Source: Myxococcota bacterium (GTDB taxonomy: Bacteria; Myxococcota; JACRCW01). Taken from it: DNA of 29,017 bases. Every line of letters begins with the position of its first letter. The first letter of the stretch is position 1. The translations under genes and the position numbers were made by a program. Where the stretch lies: contig JBFMGU010000133.1 of the NCBI GenBank assembly GCA_040752415.1, forward strand, positions 1 to 29,017. The letters are read 5' to 3'. Under the pieces are notes generated by a model, which saw only the letters and a list, made by a program, of their open reading frames with translations, made no database searches and was not told where the DNA came from. Shown here one piece after another: positions 7,092 to 26,633 of this stretch.

Positions 7092-9476
7092 TTACATCCG
7101 GTAGGAGGCGCGCAGCAGCAGCATCTGGTTGGCCTGGTGCAGGTCACGCGGGATGTACTTGCCGTCGCCGAGGATGAACTCCTGGATGAGCGGCTCCTCC
7201 TCGAACATGGCCATGTAGCTGAGGTCAAACGTGAGACCCCAGGCCACGCGGTACATGGCGCTGGCGTCGAAGATGAAGGCCTGCCCGGTGGCCTTGGGCG
7301 GATAGAGCGCGGCGTCCGCGCCGGGGTTGGAGCCGTTGGCGCGGTAATCCACGTCGGACGTGTAGTAGCGCTCGTTCTCGCTCAGCTCGTAGGTGAAGCC
7401 GCTGTCCAGGAACAGGTAATCGAATGCCTGCACGCCCACGCGGGCCCGGGCAATCAGCGCGCGGTTGTGCCAGGAATCAATGGCGGTGGCGCTGATGTCG
7501 TAGGTGATGTTGTCGTAGAGCGTGGGGTCACGCAGGCCGGCGGTGAGGCCCACGCGCACGTAGTCATCCTGGTTGGGATAGCGGTCCTTGCCCTCGTTGT
7601 CGGCGTCGCACTCGTCCTTGGTGTAGTAGAGCTCCGGCACGCCGTCCTTGCCGGGATTGCCGTCCGCGTCCTTGCGGTCCCGCGCGCACGCGCTGCCGCC
7701 AATGGGCCGCGGCTTGGGGTGATCCCGACGCCACTCCATGAACGCCTCGCTGTAGAGCTGCGCGGACGCGGTGGGGAAGAAGAAGCCCATGGGCGAGACC
7801 CAGCCCAGCACGCGGAGGCGCTCGCGCTGCACCATGCCCAGGTTCTCGAGGTTGAAGACCTTGCTGTCGATCTGGGTCTTCATGCGCGCCACCTGCTTCT
7901 CCCCGTAGGGATTGCCGTTCTTGCGGCGCGCGTCGTCGACCTGCGCGAACGCGTACTGCTGCAGCATGTCGCTCTGGTAGTAGTTCCAGCTCAACGCCGT
8001 CACGTAGGACTGGTAGTGGTGGAACTGCACGTTGAGGGAGAGCGGCAGGTCACCGCGGAAGGTCATGTCGGCGAGCGCCTCGCGCAGGCCAAAGCTCGTG
8101 TCCAGCAGCGGGTGGGAGTAGTCGGTGATGCGCAGCGGGTCGTCGCCCTTGGGCGGGGTGCCCAGCACCGTGTCGTTGTCGATGGCTTCCTGCAGGTTCC
8201 ACGCGCGCAGGCCCCACGGGTCCCAGCTCAGGCGCAGCGAGAAGTTCAGCGGCGCGGTGGGACGGAAGGTGGTGGCGTTGTTGATGAGCACCGCGTCCAC
8301 GACGTGCACCGCGGTGTCCAGGGGATCCCGTCCCAACCGCTCGATCACCGGCTGGCTGTTGGCCAGGTCACGGTTGCGCATCTGGTAGCGCGGCAGCGGC
8401 GTGAAGAACGTGGCCTGCACGCTGGTGTCGGAGGTGAACATGGGCAGGCGCAGCGCGAAGTAGCCGCCCGCCGTCATGAACTGCGCGTGCAGGACCGTCT
8501 GCGCCTCCCAGAAGTCGAACCACCACTGCTTGAAGTCCGGGTCCTCCAGCGAGCTGGTCACCGGGTAGGTGGAGACGTGGCACCAATTGGCCTCCCTGCG
8601 CTCCTTGGTGCACTCCGTGTCGGTGGGGAAGAACCCGTCGACGTTGCGGTAGTCATGATCCAGCCACATGCGCGGGTGCAGCGGATTGGGCATGAACCCG
8701 GCGAAGCCGCCCACGCGGATCATGTCCAGGATGCCCACGTCCGCGTGCACGCCGTCGACGGTGGACTGGTACGTGTACGGCACAATGGCGCGCCCCAGCG
8801 TCAGCGAGAACAGTGGGTGCCGCACGGCGAGGTTGGCCTCGGTGACGCGGTCGAACGTGTAGTAACGCGGGTGCCGCACGCCGCTGCGACCACGGTAGCG
8901 CTCCGTGCTCAGCAGCGAGTCACCGTTGGTGTTGATGGGCCGGTAGTACGCGCGCTGCTGCATGAAGCCGTCAAAGTGCAGCCCCACCGGCAGACCGAAC
9001 AACGTGTCGGCGTCGACCTGCGCGCCGATCTGCCCGTAGCCCCACTCCACCTGCAGCGGGCTGGACACGGTGTAGAGCGTGCTGGTCCACACCTTCCCGT
9101 CGACGGTGTTGGGCATGGGCCGCGGCACGTACTTCTCCGCCATGATGGGCAGCTTGCGTGCGCCCGGCGGGGAGAGCACCTGCGGCCACGTCTGCGGCAC
9201 CGCGGGAGCCGTCTTGGGTGGTGCCTTGCCCGCGTCGGCGGGTGGGGCATTCACCGACGGAGCCTGAGCGGCCGGGGCCTCCCCCGTCGTCGCAGGAGCG
9301 GGTGCGGGGGCGGGCTGCGCGGGAGCGGGCTCCGCCGCGGGAGTGGGCTGCGGTGCGGGCGCGGGTTGCTGCGCGGGCGTGGGTTGCGCGGTGGCCTGAC
9401 GCGCGGCCGCGCGTGCGTCGACGATGGAGCCGAGCGTCAGGCCGAGCGCGAGGAGGAGCGCGTTGCGTCGCATCAT
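7092..9476 (-). CDS. Putative outer-membrane beta-barrel protein (candidate porin partner of the multiheme cytochrome), 794 aa
   Basis: Sec signal MMRRNALLLALGLTLGSIVDARA, a P/A/Q-rich linker, and many amphipathic strands (VRVGLTAGLRD, YDISATAIDS, LIARARVGVQAF, LFLDSGFTYELS, FIFDASAMYRV, LTFDLSYMAMF). C-terminal strand LLLRASYRM resembles a BAM beta-signal. ATG 9476 overlaps the cytochrome stop (ATGA). Confidence 0.75.
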   Translation of the reverse strand: MMRRNALLLALGLTLGSIVDARAAARQATAQPTPAQQPAPAPQPTPAAEPAPAQPAPAPAPATTGEAPAAQAPSVNAPPADAGKAPPKTAPAVPQTWPQVLSPPGARKLPIMAEKYVPRPMPNTVDGKVWTSTLYTVSSPLQVEWGYGQIGAQVDADTLFGLPVGLHFDGFMQQRAYYRPINTNGDSLLSTERYRGRSGVRHPRYYTFDRVTEANLAVRHPLFSLTLGRAIVPYTYQSTVDGVHADVGILDMIRVGGFAGFMPNPLHPRMWLDHDYRNVDGFFPTDTECTKERREANWCHVSTYPVTSSLEDPDFKQWWFDFWEAQTVLHAQFMTAGGYFALRLPMFTSDTSVQATFFTPLPRYQMRNRDLANSQPVIERLGRDPLDTAVHVVDAVLINNATTFRPTAPLNFSLRLSWDPWGLRAWNLQEAIDNDTVLGTPPKGDDPLRITDYSHPLLDTSFGLREALADMTFRGDLPLSLNVQFHHYQSYVTALSWNYYQSDMLQQYAFAQVDDARRKNGNPYGEKQVARMKTQIDSKVFNLENLGMVQRERLRVLGWVSPMGFFFPTASAQLYSEAFMEWRRDHPKPRPIGGSACARDRKDADGNPGKDGVPELYYTKDECDADNEGKDRYPNQDDYVRVGLTAGLRDPTLYDNITYDISATAIDSWHNRALIARARVGVQAFDYLFLDSGFTYELSENERYYTSDVDYRANGSNPGADAALYPPKATGQAFIFDASAMYRVAWGLTFDLSYMAMFEEEPLIQEFILGDGKYIPRDLHQANQMLLLRASYRM

Positions 9477-11875
9477 TCGAGCCCCCGCCGCAGGCCTTGA
9501 CCCTGCTTGCCGCCAGGAACCTTGCGCTTCCAGCTGATCTGGTTGTGGCACGGGAGGCAGTTCGGGTCGGGCAGGTTCCAGTGGTAGTTCTCGCCGACGG
9601 GATCCAGGAAGTCCTGCATGTGGCAGCTGATGCACTCCGTGCTCATGCCGGAATACACGTTGTTGCCGTGGCACTGTCGACAATCCAGCACGCGGTGCAC
9701 CCCTTGTAGCGGGAAGCCCGTGGTGGCGTGCGTGAAGGAGGAGGGCATCCAGCCCTGCACGCGGTGGCACTGCGCGCAGTTGCGCAATGCGCCGGCGTGG
9801 ATGTCGTCCTGCTTGTGACAGGTCCAGCACTGCGTGCCCGTACCGGTGCGGTCCACGGCGCCACCGTGACACTTGGTGCACTCCAGGTTGTCATGCTGAC
9901 CGGCGAGCGAGAACGGCGGCACGTCGTGGTAGCGGTCCACGATGCGCGTGCGCCAGTCGTCGGTGCCGTGGCAACGCGCGCACGTCGACGCGGCCAGGAT
10001 GCCGTGCGGGTCACCGTGGCAATCCTTGCAGCTGGTGCCCTGGGAACGGAACGTCCAGTCCACCTGCGGCGTGGGGTCGTTCTTCGTCTTCTCGACGAAA
10101 TGGCAGCCCACGCACTGCGCGCGCGCATGCGCGTCGGTGAGGGCGTACTTGGTCATGGTGTTGTGGTTGAACTTCAACGCGCCGCCCTGCGTGGTGTGGC
10201 ACTTGGCGCAGTCATTCCCCAGCTTGCCTGCGTGGATGTCCTGCCCGCCGTGGCAGCTCACGCACTGCGTCTCCTTCACCGCGTAGCTCGCGGGCGCGGT
10301 GGAATGACATTTGGCGCAGCTCACCGACGCATGCCGCCCCGTGAGCGGATACTTCGTCTGCGTGTTGTGATCGAAGTTCACCTGCTGGAACGCAAAGCCC
10401 TCGGTGTGACACTTCTTGCAGTCCGGTCCGCCGCCAAGGGTTCCGTTGTGCTTGTCCTCGTGACAGCTGATGCAGTCGGCGCCCACCTTCAGCTTCTTGA
10501 GTCCCTCGTCGTGGCACTTCTCGCACGAGACCGCGGCGTGACTGCCGGCCTGCGCAAACACGCTGGAGAGCTTGTCATGTGACGGGAGGCGCAGATTGTC
10601 GGAGCCGGGCACGTGGCACTTGGTGCACATGCCGGGGTTGTCGTTGAATTGCCCGTCGTGCTCGGTGGCGTGGCTGTGGCAATCCACGCACTGCGTGCTC
10701 TTGAACCGCTCAAAGGTATCTTCCGCGGTGGCCTTGCCCTTGACGCGGTGGCATTCCGTGCAGGCCACGGTGGCGTGACGCCCGGTGAGCTCCATCTTGG
10801 TCTCCGCGCCGTGGCTGAAGGAGACGTTGGAGCCTTTGAAGCCGCTGGGCTGGTGGCACTTGTTGCACTCGATCTTCTCGAAGCGGTCCACGCCGTTGAC
10901 GATGTGGATGTCATCCTCGCGGTGGCACCCGATGCAGTTGATGGACGGGTTGGGCACCACCTCCTTGGGATGGCACTTCTGACACGACGTCTTCGCGTGC
11001 TGGAAGGTCAGCGGGAACTCGGTCTTGTTGTGGTCGAACTTGTAGTCCTTCCAGTTGGCCTTCTCCTCGGCATGGCACTTGTCACAGGAGCGGCCTTCCG
11101 CGGTGTACGTGTTCTTGTGGACGTCCTTGTGGCAGCTGATGCAGCCCTGCGGACGCGACGACATCTTGAAGATCTTTCCGCCGGGATGACATTCCACGCA
11201 GCGGATGTCGTCGTGGGCGCCCTTGAGCGCGTACTCCGCGGTCTTGGCGTGGTTGAAGGTCTTGAGGATCTGGTTCTGGCTGGAGATGGAGCGCGCATCA
11301 TAGGTGTGGCAGGCCTTGCACTCCATCAGTTCCTTGCGCGTGGACGCGAAGTTGTGGACGTCCTGGTGGCAGGAGAGGCACTTCTGGTCCAGGCCAATGA
11401 GCTTGGGGCTGCCGCTCTTGTCGAACTTCTTGGTGTGGCAATCCACGCACTTGACGCGTTTGTGCGCGCCTTCCAGCTCGTAGCCGGTGAGCTCATGCGG
11501 GAAGGAGTCGCGGCCGCCGTAGGGACGCCAGTCAATGATCTGCGCCTTCTCGCCCTTGTGGTCGGCGTGACACTTCTCGCAGTTCTTCTGGTACTCCTTG
11601 CGTGCGTGCAGGCCCTCGCCCGCGTCGATCCTGGCCTTCAGGTCGCGGTGGTCATGGCAGCCCAGGCACTTGTTCCGCTCAATGCCGCCGCCCACGCCTT
11701 CCGCGTGACACTTCTTGCAGTCCAGGTTGGCGTGGCCCTTCACGCGGGGCCCGGGCTCGGCGGAGAAGAAGTCCACCGCGCGCGCGTCGGCGACGACGAG
11801 ACCGACCCACGCGACCAACAGCGCGAAGGGGGCCCACGTCTTCAGAAGGTGCAACACCCTGCTCAGCGTGCTCAC
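9473..11875 (-). CDS. Exported multiheme cytochrome c with 30 CxxCH motifs in ten tri-heme modules (~800 aa)
   Basis: 30 CxxCH counted by hand (CKKCH to CLPCH); repeating unit FxH..(Y/F)xLxGxH..CxxCH..CxxCH..H..CxxCH; signal peptide ending ADARA. Start uncertain: GTG 11875 (after AAAGG) or TTG 11899. Confidence 0.95.
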   Translation of the reverse strand: MSTLSRVLHLLKTWAPFALLVAWVGLVVADARAVDFFSAEPGPRVKGHANLDCKKCHAEGVGGGIERNKCLGCHDHRDLKARIDAGEGLHARKEYQKNCEKCHADHKGEKAQIIDWRPYGGRDSFPHELTGYELEGAHKRVKCVDCHTKKFDKSGSPKLIGLDQKCLSCHQDVHNFASTRKELMECKACHTYDARSISSQNQILKTFNHAKTAEYALKGAHDDIRCVECHPGGKIFKMSSRPQGCISCHKDVHKNTYTAEGRSCDKCHAEEKANWKDYKFDHNKTEFPLTFQHAKTSCQKCHPKEVVPNPSINCIGCHREDDIHIVNGVDRFEKIECNKCHQPSGFKGSNVSFSHGAETKMELTGRHATVACTECHRVKGKATAEDTFERFKSTQCVDCHSHATEHDGQFNDNPGMCTKCHVPGSDNLRLPSHDKLSSVFAQAGSHAAVSCEKCHDEGLKKLKVGADCISCHEDKHNGTLGGGPDCKKCHTEGFAFQQVNFDHNTQTKYPLTGRHASVSCAKCHSTAPASYAVKETQCVSCHGGQDIHAGKLGNDCAKCHTTQGGALKFNHNTMTKYALTDAHARAQCVGCHFVEKTKNDPTPQVDWTFRSQGTSCKDCHGDPHGILAASTCARCHGTDDWRTRIVDRYHDVPPFSLAGQHDNLECTKCHGGAVDRTGTGTQCWTCHKQDDIHAGALRNCAQCHRVQGWMPSSFTHATTGFPLQGVHRVLDCRQCHGNNVYSGMSTECISCHMQDFLDPVGENYHWNLPDPNCLPCHNQISWKRKVPGGKQGQGLRRGLE

Positions 11876-11956
11876 GCGGCCTTTGCGCGCGCCGGTCAAA
11901 ACCGAGGGGCCAACGGCAGGTGGGCGCGAGGACCCGCCGCGGCCCTGACCACGAGG

Positions 11957-13957
11957 TCAGTAGTACAGCACCACCCCGATGTGAAGGGTGCCGATCACGA
12001 AGAGGACGATGGAAGTGACGATGTGGAAGCGCTTCCACTTGCCCATGAGCCGCTGGGCAGTGCCGTAGAACCGCTGCCGACGCTCCAGCACCAGCTTGCT
12101 GTCAATCAGCTCCAGGGTCTGCTTGCGCAGCGCCTTGTTCTTGATGTTCTTGAGCCCGCCCAGGCGCAGCTGCAGGAGTCGTCGCCAGCGCTGGATGTCG
12201 GAGGTGGCGAGGAAGAGGAGGAACTTCCAGCTGCCCAGGTTCTCATCCTTGGGCTGACGGGCGCGCTCCTCCTCCATGATCAGCTCCAGCATGTTGATGC
12301 TGCGGGTGTGCTGGTTCCACTGGCTGGCGAGCGTGGTGATGGACTTGTCCAGGTCCTTCAGCTCCCGGTCAATGCTGAATTCCTTCCCGGGAATCTGGTT
12401 GGCGATGTACTGGCCGAGCAGACCCGAGATGACGACGAGGGTCATGGCGTACACGCCCAGCGAGGGCCACTTGGAGAAGTTGAGGTTTCCGTGCAGGAAC
12501 ACCAGCGCGGGGCCCAACGTCCCCAGCGCGTTGTGCAGCGCGAACCAGGTGTACTTGGAGCCGATGAAGCTGAGCGCGGGGATGCGGTTGCGCATGCTGT
12601 AGATGAGCGTGCCGCCCATGCAGCTGGCGCCGATGATGCCCAGCCACAACCCGAGGCCACGGCCGCTGTCGAACCCGCCCTCCATCTGGTTGTCCTCGGG
12701 GAAGAAGGGCATGAAGGACAGGTCGGGGATCCAGCGACGGAAAATCCACTCGAACAGGCACGCCACGGTGAGGATGCCGGCGAGCCAGTAGCTGAACCTG
12801 GGTAGCCAGCGACCACCCTCCTGCGTGGAGAGTCCCTTCTCGAACGGGTCCACCGCGCACGCGTCCTCGGTGGCCACGTTGGCGGACAGGCCGAAGAGCA
12901 GCTCGGGCACCGCGTCGATCATGGAGCCGGTGGGGCAGGCGCTGATGCAGGCCATGTCGTCGTAGCCGGCGCAGCGGTCACACTTCACCGCGTTCTTCTT
13001 GGGGACCTTCTTGCCCGCGTTGTCCCAGACCGTGGTGTCGAAGTTCTCGGGGATGTCGTAGATGAAGATGGAGTCGTTGGGGCAGTTGCGCGCACAGACG
13101 TTGCAGCCCGTGCAGTTCTCCATGGCAATGCGGATTTCATTGCTGATGGGGTCGCGGTTGATCGCGTTGAAGTTGCAATCAATCAGGCAGCGCGGGTCGT
13201 AACACTGACGACACGAGATGCTGAAGTTGATGAGCCCCACCTGCGGGCCAAAGCGCTCCAGGCGGGAGAAGCCATGGCGGTCCTCACAGGCCTGCACGCA
13301 CTTGTCGCAGTCAATGCACAGCTCCAGCTGGCGGATCTTGGTGCGCGTGGAGAAGCTGAAACCGTTCTTGACGAAGAAGTCGAAGATCTCCTCGCGTCCG
13401 CTCTCGCGCAGCTGCTGGATGCGGTGGATCCAGTTCTCGGCGTGGTTGCGCAGCTCATCCTGGAACTTGGGATGCTTCTGCAGCACCTCCGCCGCCCGAC
13501 GCGCGGGCACGCGGATGAGCTGCACCTCGGTGATGGCGTAGACGTGGAGGCCGCCGGCGGCGGCGGTGATGTCGTCGGCGAAGAAGTCGCCGGCGCCGAA
13601 CACGGCCAGCGTCTGGCCTTCCGCCTTGAACGTCTCCGCCTTCACCTTCTTCTTGGAAGCGGCCAGGCCATCCTCGGTGCCCACCGCCACGCCCACCTGG
13701 CCGGCGACGACGAAGTTGAGGCTGGGCTCCGGGGCCTTGGGGGCATCTCCGCCGAGGAAGAGCACGTCGCGCTCCACCACCTCACCCTTGGCGGTGGCCT
13801 CGAAGATCTTGAGCACCTCGTCGGGCGCGTCCTGGAAGAGCGGGAGGCGACGGAGCGCGGAGGCGGGTGGCGGCGGCGCCTTGATGTTCTTGGCGGCCAG
13901 CTTGGCTTTCTTCTCGGCAAGCTTGGCGGCCTTGTCTGCTGCGGCTGTCGCGGCCAT
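11957..13957 (-). CDS. Fusion of a degenerate cyclic-nucleotide-binding (CAP/CRP-like) domain, a 4x[4Fe-4S] ferredoxin (DmsB/NrfC-like) and a four-His cytochrome b/ferric-reductase-like membrane domain
   Basis: LRRLPLFQ...FVVAGQVGV...LAVFGAGDFF; Cys groups CIDCDKCVQAC, CRQCYDPRCLIDC, CTGCNVCARNCP and CDRCAGYDDMACISACP; about 5 TM helices with two His pairs each 14 residues apart (ALH..FLH, RFH..TLH). GGAGG lies 7 nt before the ATG. Confidence 0.9.
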   Translation of the reverse strand: MAATAAADKAAKLAEKKAKLAAKNIKAPPPPASALRRLPLFQDAPDEVLKIFEATAKGEVVERDVLFLGGDAPKAPEPSLNFVVAGQVGVAVGTEDGLAASKKKVKAETFKAEGQTLAVFGAGDFFADDITAAAGGLHVYAITEVQLIRVPARRAAEVLQKHPKFQDELRNHAENWIHRIQQLRESGREEIFDFFVKNGFSFSTRTKIRQLELCIDCDKCVQACEDRHGFSRLERFGPQVGLINFSISCRQCYDPRCLIDCNFNAINRDPISNEIRIAMENCTGCNVCARNCPNDSIFIYDIPENFDTTVWDNAGKKVPKKNAVKCDRCAGYDDMACISACPTGSMIDAVPELLFGLSANVATEDACAVDPFEKGLSTQEGGRWLPRFSYWLAGILTVACLFEWIFRRWIPDLSFMPFFPEDNQMEGGFDSGRGLGLWLGIIGASCMGGTLIYSMRNRIPALSFIGSKYTWFALHNALGTLGPALVFLHGNLNFSKWPSLGVYAMTLVVISGLLGQYIANQIPGKEFSIDRELKDLDKSITTLASQWNQHTRSINMLELIMEEERARQPKDENLGSWKFLLFLATSDIQRWRRLLQLRLGGLKNIKNKALRKQTLELIDSKLVLERRQRFYGTAQRLMGKWKRFHIVTSIVLFVIGTLHIGVVLYY

Positions 13958-14032
13958 GCGTGAACCTCCCTGCCCCGCAATCCCGACGATCTGAGCACAA
14001 TGCGCGAACGCCGGCCATCCGTTGGCGCAGGA

Positions 14033-16831
14033 TCAGCGCCCGCCCCGTTTCCCTTTGCCCTTCTTGCCCTTCTTGGGTGCTGGCGCCGAGTCCCCGCCCT
14101 CCTCCCCCATGGCCTGCAGCGCCTCCGCGGCCTGGATGCGACGCTCGTCCCGCTCGTCGGAGTTCTCGAGGAACTGCTTGAGCGCCTCCACGGCGCCCTT
14201 CTTGTCCTTCTCCGCCTGCAACGCGAGGCCGAAATACAGGTGCGCGCCGGGTTCCTCATTGGCCTTGGCGGCCTGCTTGAGGACCTTGAGGCCCTGCTCC
14301 TTCTGGCCCGCGTCGTAGAGCGCCTTGCCAATCACGCCAGCGGCCTTGGGGTCGGCCTTGGCCATCTCCGGCAGCTTCTCCGGGGTGGCGCGCGCCAGGC
14401 CCGTGTAGGACCGCAGCGCACTCTCCCAGTCGCCACTGGCCACCGCGGCGGCGCCGGCTCCCACGGCCACGTCGGGGTCGGTGGGGTCCAGCTCCGCGGC
14501 CTTCTTCAGCTCCTTCTCGGCGGCGGCGGACTGCCCCTTCTGCGCCAACGCGCGGGCCTTCAGCGCGCTGGCGCGCGGACTCTCGAAGCCGGCGTTGTCC
14601 AGCGCCTGGAGGGCCTTCATGGCGCCCGCCACGTCGCCATCATCCAGCATCACGCGCGCTTGCAGCAGGTGCGCGGCGGGATCCTGCGGATTGAGGTCCA
14701 TGGCGTCCTTGATGTGCTTGAGCGCGTCGGTGCGGTCTCCCGCGGCGGCCTCGGCGCGCGCCAGGGCCAGCATCAGCGCGGCGTCCTTCTTCGCCTCCTC
14801 CAGGGCCTTCTGCAGCTCGTCCTTGGCCTCCCGCGCCTTGCCCTGCATGACCAGCGCGTCGGCGCGCACCACGGCCCCGACGGCACGCAGGCGGAGCATG
14901 GCGGCGCGCGGGCTCAGGTCAGGCACGTCCAGCGCGGCGGCAATCTCGCCTTCCGGGAAGTAGCGTGCGTGCAGGAGCGTCTCCCACGGCGTGATGGCGC
15001 CGGGACGCACCACCACGTTGCCGAACGGGAGGCGCAGCACGGGGAACTCGCTCTTGGCCTTGAACTGCGCCTTGACCTCACGCACCCATTCCTGGCCGCG
15101 CGCGGCGGCGGCGGAGGCACGCACCACGTCCTTGTGGAACGCCACCTCCGCCTCCTCCTTCTCCGCCGCCTTCTGGAAGAGCGAGAGCGCCTTGTCGACG
15201 TCACCCATGGCCAGGCGGACCCGCGCCACCTCGGCGAGCGCCTGGGGGACCTCGTCGGTCATGGAGGCGGCGCGCTCCAGGAAGGGACCGGCCTTGTCTT
15301 CCTGGCCGCGCAGGTACGCGCTGAGCGCCAGGCCCATGGCCACCCGCGCCGCCATGTCCGGGTGCGTGGCCTTGCTGTCCAGCAACGACTGCGCGGCCTT
15401 CTCGAAGGTGGCGCGCGCGGTGTCGTCGGCGTGGGAGGTGAACAGGCCCAGGATGACGCCCGGGCCGTGGTTGGGAGAGAGCTTCACCAGCCGCTCGGCC
15501 AGGGCGCGGGCCTCCTTCTCGTCGCCAAGGCGGGCGTGCGCGCGGGCCAGGCTGTGCAGCGCCAGGGGCAGCGTGGGGTCCTTGCGGTGGGCCTTGCGGT
15601 AGGCCTCGGCGGCGGCGGCGTCATCACCCTTGTCCTCCGCCATGCGCCCCACCACCACGTCGAGCCACGCGTCCTCCGGGTGCTCCTCCAGCGCCTTCTT
15701 GAGGTCCTCCTCCAGCGCGGCGTCCTTCTTCCCGCCGTGGCTGGCCACGAGGTGACGCGCAAGCAATGCGGCGGCGGTACGCAGGCCCGGGCTGCCTTCC
15801 TCACCCACGGCGTTGAGGGCGCGCTCGGCGGACTCCCGGAAGTAGTCGCCACCGCCGAGGTCCGCGGCACGCACGGCGAGCGCGAGGGCCATCAGGGGCT
15901 GCGCCGCCTCGAACTCCGGGGAGCCGCTGTTGACCTTGTCCAGGATGTCCGCGGCCTGCACGTAGGAGGAAGGCGCGTCCTCCCGCAGGAGCGCATAGGC
16001 GCGCTGCAGCGGCGTGCCGGTCTTGCTGGCGGAGAGCTTCTTGTGGACGAGGAAACCCGCAGGCACACCGGCCAGCACCGCAAACGAGAAGACGACGATG
16101 GTGCTGGCGATGCGCAAACCCGCTCCCGAGCTCGTCTGGCCCTGCTTGGCCTGGTTCACATCCAGCGGCAACACCCCGGCAGAGAGCAGGCTCTGCAGGG
16201 CCTTGTCCAGATCTACTTGACCGAGGGCGGGCTCGGCGGTGGCAGCTCCGGCGGCGGGGGCGTCGAGGGCACCGGCCTTCACCTGCTCCAGGCTGACCAT
16301 CCGGGTGGCTTCCTTCTTGGCCTCCTGGCTGACCACCGCGCCGGGCGCGGCCTCCACCTTCTTGTAGCCGCGCTTGATGAGGTTGCGCGTGCGGTCGAGC
16401 TGCTTGCGGCTCTCGGCGTCGTCGGGGTTGAGCGCAACCGCCTGCTCCAGGAACTTCACCGCCTGTTCACGCAGGCCCTTGAGGAGCAGGTAGCGACCCA
16501 GCAGCGCGTAGGGACGGGAGTCCTTGGGCGCCACCTGGATGGCCTTCTTGAGATTGTCGACGGCCTCCTTGGCGTTGACCTGCTCCCAGTGCGCCTCCGC
16601 CAGGTACAGCAGCCCCTCCAGGTTGTTGGGGTTCTGCTTGAGCCCGTCCTCGGCGATCTTCTGGGCTTCCGCCCACGCCTTGTTCTTCAGCTTCTCCTGG
16701 GCCTGCTGCACCCACGGCGGCACCCCCTCCGCCAGCTCCAACATGGCGATGGAGAAGAACTGCGTCTGCGCCGGGTTGAACGTCTTGGGCGGCGCGGCAG
16801 TGGCCTTGGTGGGGTTCGGTGCAGGAGGCAC
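14033..16831 (-). CDS. Large tetratricopeptide-repeat protein with a single internal transmembrane helix
   Basis: Repeated TPR-like units (A..L.KA...P.D..A...LG) on both sides of the hydrophobic segment IASTIVVFSFAVLAGVPAGFLV; Lys-rich C-terminus. Start uncertain (GTG 16831 or ATG 16744). Confidence 0.85.
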   Translation of the reverse strand: MPPAPNPTKATAAPPKTFNPAQTQFFSIAMLELAEGVPPWVQQAQEKLKNKAWAEAQKIAEDGLKQNPNNLEGLLYLAEAHWEQVNAKEAVDNLKKAIQVAPKDSRPYALLGRYLLLKGLREQAVKFLEQAVALNPDDAESRKQLDRTRNLIKRGYKKVEAAPGAVVSQEAKKEATRMVSLEQVKAGALDAPAAGAATAEPALGQVDLDKALQSLLSAGVLPLDVNQAKQGQTSSGAGLRIASTIVVFSFAVLAGVPAGFLVHKKLSASKTGTPLQRAYALLREDAPSSYVQAADILDKVNSGSPEFEAAQPLMALALAVRAADLGGGDYFRESAERALNAVGEEGSPGLRTAAALLARHLVASHGGKKDAALEEDLKKALEEHPEDAWLDVVVGRMAEDKGDDAAAAEAYRKAHRKDPTLPLALHSLARAHARLGDEKEARALAERLVKLSPNHGPGVILGLFTSHADDTARATFEKAAQSLLDSKATHPDMAARVAMGLALSAYLRGQEDKAGPFLERAASMTDEVPQALAEVARVRLAMGDVDKALSLFQKAAEKEEAEVAFHKDVVRASAAAARGQEWVREVKAQFKAKSEFPVLRLPFGNVVVRPGAITPWETLLHARYFPEGEIAAALDVPDLSPRAAMLRLRAVGAVVRADALVMQGKAREAKDELQKALEEAKKDAALMLALARAEAAAGDRTDALKHIKDAMDLNPQDPAAHLLQARVMLDDGDVAGAMKALQALDNAGFESPRASALKARALAQKGQSAAAEKELKKAAELDPTDPDVAVGAGAAAVASGDWESALRSYTGLARATPEKLPEMAKADPKAAGVIGKALYDAGQKEQGLKVLKQAAKANEEPGAHLYFGLALQAEKDKKGAVEALKQFLENSDERDERRIQAAEALQAMGEEGGDSAPAPKKGKKGKGKRGGR

Positions 16832-24108: not shown

Positions 24109-25275
24109 TCATCTCGGTGTCGGGGGCGGTGCTGCCGGCGCCGAAGGCGATGCTGCGCCAGACGGGGGCGGTCGGGGGCCACTCGTTGTGGTCACATACG
24201 GCGTTGCCATCGGAACCGTCGGCTCTGGAGGAGCGCCCTCCAACCTGTTCTGGCGGTAGAACCCGGCGGGGTTGACCCTCAGGAACTCCACCATCTTCGG
24301 CAATGTTTCGCGAAGTGTTCGCTTGGGTTCCCACCCCAACAGCTTTCGAGCGCGCGTGATGGCGAGCTCGTAGTGGTCGTCGGCGAGGTCGACCATCCAC
24401 GGCTTGATGAACGGCTCATCGACCCCGGGAATCACGTCCTGGACCCACGCACCTGCCTTGGCCACTGCCTTGGGAATGTGGCGCGTTTCCCAGTGCTCCT
24501 CGTGAATCAGCCAGGCGAAGATCCGCTGCAGCTCGTCGTACGAAAGCGTTTCCGGTTCCCCCACGAGCATGATGGTCTCGGGCCCCAGCCGGCTCCGCGC
24601 CATGACGGTGAGGCGCATCAGCTCGACGAGATCATCGAGATGCACGAACGCTTGCCCCGTGGCCGTGTCACCGGGGAACACCTGGGCCGTCACCCTGCGC
24701 TCGTAGATCCGCTGCATCTGGTGCGCGATGGGAACGGAGTGACACCGGTCATCATAGACGCCGGCGATCCGGAGAATGACGACGGGGAGGTCCTGGTGCC
24801 CCGACAGGATCACGCGCTCGGTCTCGAGTTTGGAACGCGGATAGATCCACTTGGGTTCCAGGGGCCAGTCTTCGTTGATCTGCTGCCCGGGCCGACAAGG
24901 CGCGTGCACCAGCATGGTGCTGGAGAACACGAACTGTTCCACCTGCATGTCCCGCAGCGCCCGAAGCAGTCGTTCCGTGCCGCGAACGGTGACCTTCTCG
25001 TACAGCTCGCTCGGCTCGCCGGAGAAGTCGTGGTGGTCGGCAAGGTGGATGGTCGAGGCGATCTTCGTCCCGAAGCGTCGTCTCACCTGGGCCATTGCCA
25101 CGCTGACGCTCTCGTCGGACGCCATGTCCACGTGGAAGAACTCAATGTCCTGGTGCGGTGCGGGAACCTTCTGGTCAAAGCCGACGATTCGGTACGTTGA
25201 CGCCAGCCTTTGAGCGACAGCCGTGCCAATGAGGCCGCTGCATCCCGTCATCAACAGCAGGGGTCGATCAGACAC
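24109..25275 (-). CDS. NAD-dependent epimerase/dehydratase (extended SDR)
   Basis: TGCSGLIG Rossmann motif, FVFSSTM, YPRSK (YxxxK), LRIAGVY, FVHLDDLV; GAGGAG before GTG 25275; Pro-rich tail. Confidence 0.9.
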   Translation of the reverse strand: MSDRPLLLMTGCSGLIGTAVAQRLASTYRIVGFDQKVPAPHQDIEFFHVDMASDESVSVAMAQVRRRFGTKIASTIHLADHHDFSGEPSELYEKVTVRGTERLLRALRDMQVEQFVFSSTMLVHAPCRPGQQINEDWPLEPKWIYPRSKLETERVILSGHQDLPVVILRIAGVYDDRCHSVPIAHQMQRIYERRVTAQVFPGDTATGQAFVHLDDLVELMRLTVMARSRLGPETIMLVGEPETLSYDELQRIFAWLIHEEHWETRHIPKAVAKAGAWVQDVIPGVDEPFIKPWMVDLADDHYELAITRARKLLGWEPKRTLRETLPKMVEFLRVNPAGFYRQNRLEGAPPEPTVPMATPYVTTTSGPRPPPSGAASPSAPAAPPPTPR

Positions 25276-25336
25276 GGAGCCCTCCTCACCGTCGTAGGAT
25301 CCGGGATAACGGTTTGCGCCACGCCGTGCGACAAGC

Positions 25337-25738
25337 TCATCCCTGCTGGTGTGCCGCGCCGCTGCCCGGCTGCTCGGCGGAGCCTGGTTCGACGGGCGGA
25401 GGCCCCTCCTCGACGGTCAGGGGGAGGCCGGCGGCCACCCAGTCCTGTTTGCCCCCGCGGTAGTCGCGGACGCGCGTGTATCCCAGCGCCGCCAGCTCCC
25501 GGGCAGCGTTCGCCGAGGCCTGTCAGGAGAACCCGCTGCAGTAGACGACGATGTCCGCCTCCTTGTCTGGCAGCTTGATTGGAGCGAGCTCGGCCAGGTT
25601 CTGGGGCGGCAGGTTGATTGCACCGGGGAGATGTCCCTGACGGAAGGAAGCCGGCGGGAGCGTTTCCACGAGCGTGAAGGGCGTGCGTTGAACCATCTTC
25701 CCGCTCAGCTCATCCCGGCTGATGATTCCCGAGTCCAC
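25337..25738 (-). CDS. Single-domain rhodanese (sulfurtransferase) with an in-frame TGA at codon 72; probable selenoprotein (133 aa), alternatively a pseudogene
   Basis: GHLPGAINLP..DIVVYCSGFS-[TGA 25523-25525]-QASANAARELAALGYTRVRDYRGGKQDWVAAGLP. The rhodanese fold continues in frame across the TGA to a second stop at 25337-25339. GGAG precedes GTG 25738. Confidence 0.85.
25487..25508 (-). promoter_or_regulatory. Candidate bacterial SECIS hairpin
   Basis: On the mRNA, CGCUGCC-C-G[GGAG]C-U-GGCGGCG forms a 7-bp stem plus a G-C closing pair. The G-initiated 4-nt apical loop begins 23 nt after the UGA. Confidence 0.6.
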
Positions 25739-26093
25739 GCTGTGGCTCCCTTCCGCACCCCCTGAAGTTCCGCACTCGCCGACGTGCGCAGCTCCCTCCC
25801 GGGATGTGACGGATACCGTGGACCACGTCAGGTGCGTCAGCGCCGAAGCCACAGGACTGATCCCGGCTTCCCCGGCGGCGGCAACCTGGCCGAAGACTAT
25901 GTGGAGCTAAGCCCTGACGAATCTCCGGCGCACGGCATGCAGGCGCCAACGCTTCGGCTTGCTTCACTGTCCAAGACCGAGGGCGAGACTGTTGCTCGAG
26001 GTCCGAGCGCTACAACTTCTTCCGGTGACGTGACCAGCGCCTGCTACCCATCACCACGCCGAGGGCCGTGGACGCGCGCACGGGGAGACTCCG

Positions 26094-26309
26094 ATGGAAT
26101 ACGACGACTTCGAACAGGGCGAGTGTGAGGACTGCCGCCAGACCGTGACCCCGCCGCAGGACCCGGTGTACCGCCTTGGTGAGGACGCCTTCCTCTGCCT
26201 CCAGTGCGCCACCCGCCGAGGCGGCGTCTACAACGCTGACGAGGATCGGTGGGTCGTGGAACCGTCACTGCGAGGCATCGAAGGCCTGGCCAATCCGCCG
26301 CCACCGTGA
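26094..26309 (+). CDS. Small acidic CxxC-x20-CxxC (Zn-finger-like) protein, 71 aa
   Basis: CEDC...CLQC, GGGGAG ribosome-binding site, GC3-rich codons. Confidence 0.7.
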   Translation: MEYDDFEQGECEDCRQTVTPPQDPVYRLGEDAFLCLQCATRRGGVYNADEDRWVVEPSLRGIEGLANPPPP

Positions 26310-26633
26310 CGGTGCACACCGGCTCCCACCGTGAGCGCTCGTCGACCAGCGTCCGTCCCGCCATCAGCTCCCAACACGCGCCGCCCATTCGCCGGAGATC
26401 AGCGGCGTCCGCGAGGGTTCCCGGCCAGCTCGTCGAGCGTCGGCCGCTGGCCCAGGCGCGCTGCCCCTGAGCTCTCCGGCGGGTGAGGCCCGGCTTCCCA
26501 CGCTCAAGGCCCAGGTGATCGGCACGCCAGCCCCGGCCCCGGCAAGCTTTGCCCCCGCGCCCGGGCGTCTTGCGTTAGGATGCCGCAGCGGCGGACCCTG
26601 CGGGCAAAGAACCACGCAGCCGGGAGACGGGCG

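Follow-up and report, generated by a model that had tools for sequence, protein, structure and literature searches.

The window, i.e. the whole analysed stretch of 29,017 nucleotides from a Myxococcota bacterium, carries on its minus strand a frame of 133 codons (25738-25337) with a GTG start and an in-frame TGA as codon 72. This TGA is followed by QASANAARELAALGYTRVRDYRGGKQDWVAAGLP and then by the true stop at 25339-25337, and the loop around it reads YC-SGFS-TGA-QAS. The following features were assigned:

25337..25738, minus strand: gene for a predicted 133-residue single-domain rhodanese selenoprotein (sequence, Pfam, AlphaFold model)
25746..25752, minus strand: Shine-Dalgarno-like AAGGGAG, 7 nt before the GTG (sequence; putative function)
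25433..25699, minus strand: rhodanese domain PF00581, residues 14-102 (E 1.2e-15)
25538..25540, minus strand: TGC codon of Cys67, which lines up with the active-site cysteine of PspE (Cys in 107 of the 120 listed homologues)
25523..25525, minus strand: in-frame TGA, codon 72, predicted selenocysteine in the motif C-x4-U-x2-S (homologue columns)
25487..25508, minus strand: SECIS-type hairpin within the coding sequence, stem 25508-25502/25493-25487, loop GGAG 25499-25496
25340..25417, minus strand: low-complexity Pro/Gly/Glu tail, residues 108-133

The initial annotation had proposed that the ORF stops at YCSGFS but that an intact rhodanese C-terminal half continues in frame with unchanged codon bias, and that standard annotation would truncate the gene. 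All of this held. With the TGA read through, PF00581 extends over residues 14-102 (E 1.2e-15), whereas the match of the ORF that ends there breaks off at position 70 of the 102-position profile. The GC3 was 0.80 before the TGA and 0.91 in codons 73-107, and the hexamer coding score was 0.27 before the TGA, 0.43 after it and 0.02 in the last 26 codons. The Pro/Gly/Glu tail is longer than the tails of the relatives and is unconserved. In the public collection, the gene product is a 71-residue NCBI protein ending in YCSGFS.

An NAD-dependent epimerase-family gene lies on the same strand, 61 nt 3′ of the rhodanese gene, and is not a recurring neighbour among the relatives' loci. No promoter-like or terminator-like sites were found in 25100-26500. 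Divergent from the rhodanese gene, a 71-codon ORF at 26094-26309 (plus strand) encodes two CxxC pairs and has no Pfam or NCBIfam match. Elsewhere on the minus strand of the window, an ORF with 30 CxxCH heme motifs (9473-11899), genes for a 4Fe-4S protein (11957-13957) and a TPR protein (14033-16831), and a 929-codon ORF without Pfam or NCBIfam match (7092-9881) were observed; the region 7092-16831 looks like an electron-transfer cluster.

A protein search at E 1e-10 returned 1017 homologues, and the 120 listed among them carry at column 72 Cys in 98 cases, Ser in 12, Trp in 8, Arg in one and another residue in one. The YC-x4-C pattern that the initial annotation had named for this subfamily is thus the common one among the listed proteins. 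All eight Trp proteins are JGI calls. In one protein cluster, Trp forms stand beside members that stop exactly at column 72, and one Trp form pairs with a TGA locus on the tree with 99% support, so Trp was counted as TGA. Among the best 80 of at least 510 confirmed metagenome loci, 73 carry TGA, six TGC or TGT and one another codon, a ratio that is not a family frequency, as Trp forms made up 8 of 18 query rows and biased the sample towards TGA. In 401 genomes of the host phylum, 21 had a match, and the 22 places outside the host comprised eight TGA, eleven TGC and three with a short canonical loop; the unpublished genome G195 is counted only within the 401-genome tallies. The expected pairing of Cys and TGA across genomes was hence recovered, and the TGA, shared with metagenome loci and other genomes of the phylum, is no private nonsense mutation.

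A second phylum sample gave one match in 401 genomes (Cys form), a genome-contig scan with one protein query gave one distant locus, and viral contigs gave two weak loci. Three of eight plasmid matches were opened, with a TGA in Gemmatirosa kalamazoonensis, at about position 645,450 of its plasmid 1, and a TGC in both Leisingera and Embleya. A profile of the N-terminal half matched 6836 of 8000 scored proteins, a figure that includes both stumps and complete Cys forms. The top 120 of these 6836 all end at the TGA, four residues after YC, an outcome favoured by the truncated query, and two of them are named from Pyrinomonadaceae.

Downstream of the TGA, the first and second codon positions of 72 loci are 84-86% identical, compared with 43% for third positions outside the hairpin, and amino-acid identity among the relatives is 78% after the TGA vs 66% before it. 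As third positions vary freely and amino acids are kept, the second half appears to be working coding sequence, and this pattern indicates purifying selection on it. The 73 TGA relatives among the best 80 metagenome loci start mostly about 70 codons before the TGA and stop 38-51 codons past it (61 in the window gene). Since the relatives stop so soon, the family is taken to be single-domain and the window copy to be whole. A truncated rhodanese-CBS fusion was considered and rejected, as all 73 TGA relatives stop within these 38-51 codons; a CBS domain was found in none of 18 longer homologues.

Mapping the TGA label onto a 223-row tree takes 23 changes, of which well-supported branches force at least nine, indicating repeated swaps between Sec and Cys. 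The tree was built by a quick method on 114 columns with 105 of 219 forks open, and it resolves neither the placement of the window gene nor gain versus loss of the TGA. Nested among the TGA forms is a clade of twelve homologues (P0056, P0059, P0065 and nine others, one named from Blastocatellia) in which Cys67 and Cys/Sec72 are both lost and the rest of the domain is kept. In one further relative (L062:2184-2201), the TGA and the hairpin are kept and Arg (CGT) replaces Cys67.

In the hairpin, a stem of 7 bp is extended by a G-C pair that closes the GGAG loop (-13.7 kcal/mol). Its loop begins 23 nt after the UGA, and the whole element spans 18-39 nt counted from the recoding site. The consensus bacterial SECIS in a recent review has a loop of 3-9 nt, a stem of 4-16 bp and a G in the first two loop positions, at a distance of 16-37 nt from the UGA and with an MFE of at most -7.5 (PMC13188914, Fig. 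2 legend). With a 4-nt loop starting GG, 7+1 bp, 23 nt and -13.7, the window hairpin lies within this model. However, in DNA of 69% GC its stability is no higher than that of shuffled sequences (z = +0.08 for 34 nt, -0.28 for 50 nt and -1.11 for 100 nt), and a loose hairpin rule also accepted 333 of 500 TGA sites used as host controls. Folding energy was therefore rejected as proof of a SECIS.

Conservation was more informative. Across 72 distinct metagenome TGA loci, silent sites within the hairpin are nearly fixed (GCC in 71 of 72, CGT in 65 of 70 and GCG in 60 of 66 at codons +7, +8 and +11), compared with at most 74% for the commonest codon of Ala, Arg, Gly, Pro, Val, Leu, Thr or Ser elsewhere. 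In 71 distinct of 75 rows, 96.7% of the cells are paired, 18 of them changed on both sides; none of 500 shuffles reached this level and slid controls reached at most 66.5%. Two pairs show a two-sided change, a number not above shuffles. RNAalifold recovered the same core stem unaided. A pattern derived from the family (G-U/G-G-A in a loop that at least five pairs close, 21-29 nt in) was built to match the TGA loci and does so at 70 of 82. It also matches 1 of 17 Cys loci and, among 500 host control sites, five, of which two are the window gene itself and a second C-x4-TGA rhodanese. The window loop starts with GG and most relatives have GU, both of which are allowed by the SECIS model of the review (PMC13188914). 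Conservation, not stability, thus lifts the hairpin above chance. The GGAG hairpin at 23 nt described in the initial annotation is present and conserved, but the stability stressed there is not evidence by itself.

The host genome (11.0 Mb, 69% GC, 96.8% complete, 4.3% contamination) is matched in GC by the window (0.68). The initial annotation had named the presence of selA, selB, selC and selD in the host as a check, and all were found: selA, selB and selD each score above the curated cut-off, selD itself containing one TGA, and the tRNA-SeC with a UCA anticodon is the sole UCA-anticodon tRNA there. These genes lie on contigs other than that of the window. A Sec formate dehydrogenase was looked for in the host and not found. 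The host's family and order are represented by a single other genome, in which neither a match at 1e-15 nor selA or selB was found. Among the other TGA-carrying genomes of the phylum, selB is present in eight of eight and selA in seven of eight, the genome without selA being 78% complete. With regards to the background of 272 selB genomes in 401, the co-occurrence would have a probability of about 0.05 if genomes were independent, which kin are not, and as a test of Sec decoding it is weak. On the three plasmid records searched, including that of G. kalamazoonensis, no selB was found (plasmids only).

Several side observations concern the same host. A second rhodanese with YC-x4-TGA (L129:471-917; G000:C269, plus strand) has an N-terminal lipoprotein-like leader and a hairpin with a CGUGA loop in a different codon phase, and it is distant from the window gene on the tree. 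The TGA scan gave further Sec candidates on contigs C14, C190, C388, C390, C510 and C171, named by motif only (U-x2-C or T-x2-U): frames resembling TlpA, DsbA, thioredoxin and, twice, peroxiredoxin, plus SelD. An array of 24 tRNA genes occupies about 2.3 kb (G000:C471:45565-47816).

From the host sel genes, the Cys/TGA column, the constraint after the TGA and the conserved hairpin, we consider it close to certain that the UGA at codon 72 is decoded as selenocysteine, as the initial annotation had inferred. That the TGA is instead a true stop, in a pseudogene or through an assembly error, or tryptophan under another code, is highly improbable. A single base change turns TGC into TGA, the hairpin is no more stable than its shuffles, and with 26 rhodanese matches in the host one copy could be spared. 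However, the same TGA recurs at 73 metagenome loci, in eight other genomes and on the G. kalamazoonensis plasmid, and the sequence past it shows the signature of purifying selection described above. The tryptophan code was rejected, since TGG encodes the conserved Trp100 at 72 of 72 loci and the only host UCA anticodon belongs to tRNA-SeC; moreover, the TGA column aligns with Cys, not Trp. The stop, pseudogene and Trp-code alternatives thus appear largely refuted, and the locus is very likely a real, functional selenoprotein gene cut short by annotation.

Residues 1-112 were modelled with AlphaFold, using Cys for Sec and a 60-row alignment; the model reached a mean pLDDT of 95, superimposes on solved rhodaneses with TM 0.86-0.89 and places residues 67-73 in the loop that links a strand to a helix. 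Cys67, whose loop is two residues longer than that of PspE, lines up with the PspE cysteine and is probably the catalytic cysteine. It is lost in 13 of the 120 listed homologues, all of which also lack Cys/Sec72, compared with 1 of the 107 that keep Cys67; this co-loss amounts to about two events, as 12 of the 13 form one clade. It points to Cys67 and residue 72 working as a pair. The classical six-residue rhodanese loop, CRXGX[R/T] (PMC11094781), is absent from the window protein. Arginine is missing from the loop in 101 of the 120 listed homologues, and E-T/A-L stands where other rhodaneses of the same alignments carry D-x-R.

In the classical rhodanese loop, arginines bind thiosulfate. For the window protein, we regard as somewhat probable a role as a cytoplasmic sulfur-redox enzyme in which the Cys67/Sec72 pair discharges persulfide sulfur. 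Following the established bacterial pathway, SelB with Sec-tRNA would bind the hairpin loop and decode the UGA. Because the loop lacks the usual arginines, the donor of the sulfane sulfur that Cys67 takes up would be a thiol persulfide or a polysulfide in preference to thiosulfate. Sec72, five residues on at the helix start, would then attack the sulfur on Cys67, releasing sulfide or passing the sulfur on while a Cys-Sec bond forms, and a thioredoxin-fold protein would reduce this bond again. It is the co-loss of Cys67 and residue 72, together with the arginine-poor loop, that favours such a persulfide-discharging cycle with Sec72 as the resolving residue. However, a loop lacking the classical motif gives no guarantee of sulfur transfer. 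Most of the 116 neighbour ORFs, taken from 72 loci, bear no relation to one another, and no conserved neighbourhood, operon or link to sulfur operons was found among them. In raw counts, thioredoxin-fold neighbours occur at six of the 72 loci and DinB-family neighbours at three; a thioredoxin-fold, DinB, ArsR, MerR or ArsM-like neighbour is found at 17 of 72, a raw count with no background. No biochemistry of any C-x4-C/U rhodanese was found in the full-text literature, a scope outside which most subscription papers fall.

Two other functions were weighed for the same selenoprotein. In one, which we consider unlikely though possible, Cys67/Sec72 would bind or reduce a metal or metalloid (arsenic, mercury, copper) in stress defence, joined in many relatives by a His-x-His tail. 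This tail occurs in 54 of 73 TGA forms vs 4 of 98 Cys proteins, ArsR-type HTH proteins neighbour TGA forms at 4 of 72 loci, MerR-type at 3 of 72 and ArsM-like methyltransferases, below NCBIfam cut-offs, at 2 of 72, and the Cys form on the Leisingera plasmid lies beside an 'arsenic resistance protein'. However, such neighbours are absent at most loci, the tail is perhaps the trait of a single clade, and the window copy has neither the tail nor a metal- or arsenic-type neighbour. Rhodanese-fold arsenate reductases use a C-x5-R oxyanion loop, which the window protein also lacks. ArsM-like methyltransferases beside TGA forms were noted at L024:2485-3648, L083:421-1626 and L122:632-1597.

The other function is rather improbable: on its rhodanese scaffold, the selenoprotein would carry selenium or reduce peroxides or disulfides in general, without any sulfane-sulfur chemistry. 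In its favour, most other Sec candidates of the host are oxidoreductases with a thioredoxin fold, a Prx-like selenoprotein gene lies directly 3′ at three loci, and the 2026 review regards most selenoproteins still uncharacterised as likely redox proteins (PMC13188914). Against this, no sel genes were found among the 116 neighbour ORFs scanned, and the rhodanese fold and cysteine position are fully retained, which a sulfur-transfer role explains directly. At the three loci mentioned (L025:719-1226, L030:1147-1435, L052:718-948), the frame immediately 3′ of the rhodanese gene is peroxiredoxin-like and has a TGA-x2-C motif itself, so that two selenoprotein genes apparently stand in tandem.

Returning to the persulfide-discharging pair, its fullest version can be offered only tentatively: a minimal cytoplasmic Cys/Sec rhodanese, among the most abundant unannotated environmental selenoproteins, with Sec-resolved, selenenylsulfide-cycling reduction of persulfide (or metal/arsenic). 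If true, Sec as the resolving residue would be a chemistry so far shown for no rhodanese. The clade sits in protein databases as stumps of about 70 residues, a widespread annotation error that is corrected here. As a soluble protein of 112-133 residues with natural Cys, Sec and Ser variants, it also offers an easy system for probing the second loop chalcogen, further assets being the cultured strain Gemmatirosa kalamazoonensis, which has a copy, and the solved structure of a C-x4-C relative.

Sec-containing rhodanese-like proteins had been mentioned in the initial annotation as predicted in bacteria, and the review indeed catalogues five forms, all predictions only (PMC13188914). Form 1 (PF00581, motif UxxS, predicted, representative WP_010941598.1; Table 1 of PMC13188914) is the closest: it shares the PF00581 domain and one Sec in the same column, YC-x4-U-x2-S in the representative and U-Q-A-S in the window, compared by motif and by eye, the alignments having used Cys stand-ins. 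A 450-residue Cys protein (P0290), judged by eye as form-1-like in build, has 40% identity to the window gene (E 1e-11) and a Cys opposite the TGA, and 18 multi-domain Cys queries likewise align a Cys with it at E down to 1e-11 and below; the window gene is therefore findable by standard homology search. However, the representative has 423 residues, a signal-peptide-like start and several rhodanese repeats, and the nine entries in deep-Sep supplement file 1 all exceed about 250 residues. The window protein is single-domain and leaderless, with E-T/A-L for D-x-R, and lacks the exported multi-domain build of the published form 1 examples, which the review does not state as defining (PMC13188914).

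TsoB (NF045694, WP_332113227.1), a rhodanese/DsbD fusion-like protein with UxxxxU listed as form 5, has the same spacing of two chalcogen residues and is the best Sec-rhodanese profile match (residues 5-110, E 2.7e-12); the two sites probably occupy the same columns. The window protein differs in reaching 45.6 bits against a cut-off of 805, in lacking the DsbD part of the 572-position model and in having one Sec instead of two, Cys67 being encoded by TGC. TsoB is reportedly the subject of work by Haft and Tolstoy in 2025. LYCAU (NF041203, form 3, CxU) and forms 2 and 4 (UxxG) likewise carry Sec in or near the rhodanese loop but at other positions; the window protein has no CxU and scores 37 bits against the NF041203 cut-off of 115. 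No NCBIfam model scored above its cut-off for the window protein. The single-domain sulfurtransferases PspE and GlpE, far below whose NCBIfam cut-offs it lies, share the fold and the first-cysteine position, but their loop is two residues shorter, contains arginine and has no second Cys/Sec.

No description of a stand-alone C-x4-U rhodanese clade was found in the full-text literature, most subscription papers lying outside this scope. G. kalamazoonensis and Blastocatellia are among the genomes that BSepDB covers by homology search, so that the database may already contain clade members without a name. A solved relative is BH2092 of Bacillus halodurans (PDB 3NHV, 3O3W), a structural-genomics target for which the literature search found no functional paper. 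It is a single-domain rhodanese with a C-x4-C loop that aligns without gaps to the window model (TM 0.89, rmsd 1.2, 26% identity) and differs in having Cys where the window protein has the predicted Sec. The window gene represents neither a new recoding system nor a new Sec site, the latter being the column of the catalogued rhodanese form 1. Apparently new here is the minimal build, with one domain, no signal peptide and no loop arginine, in a large clade.
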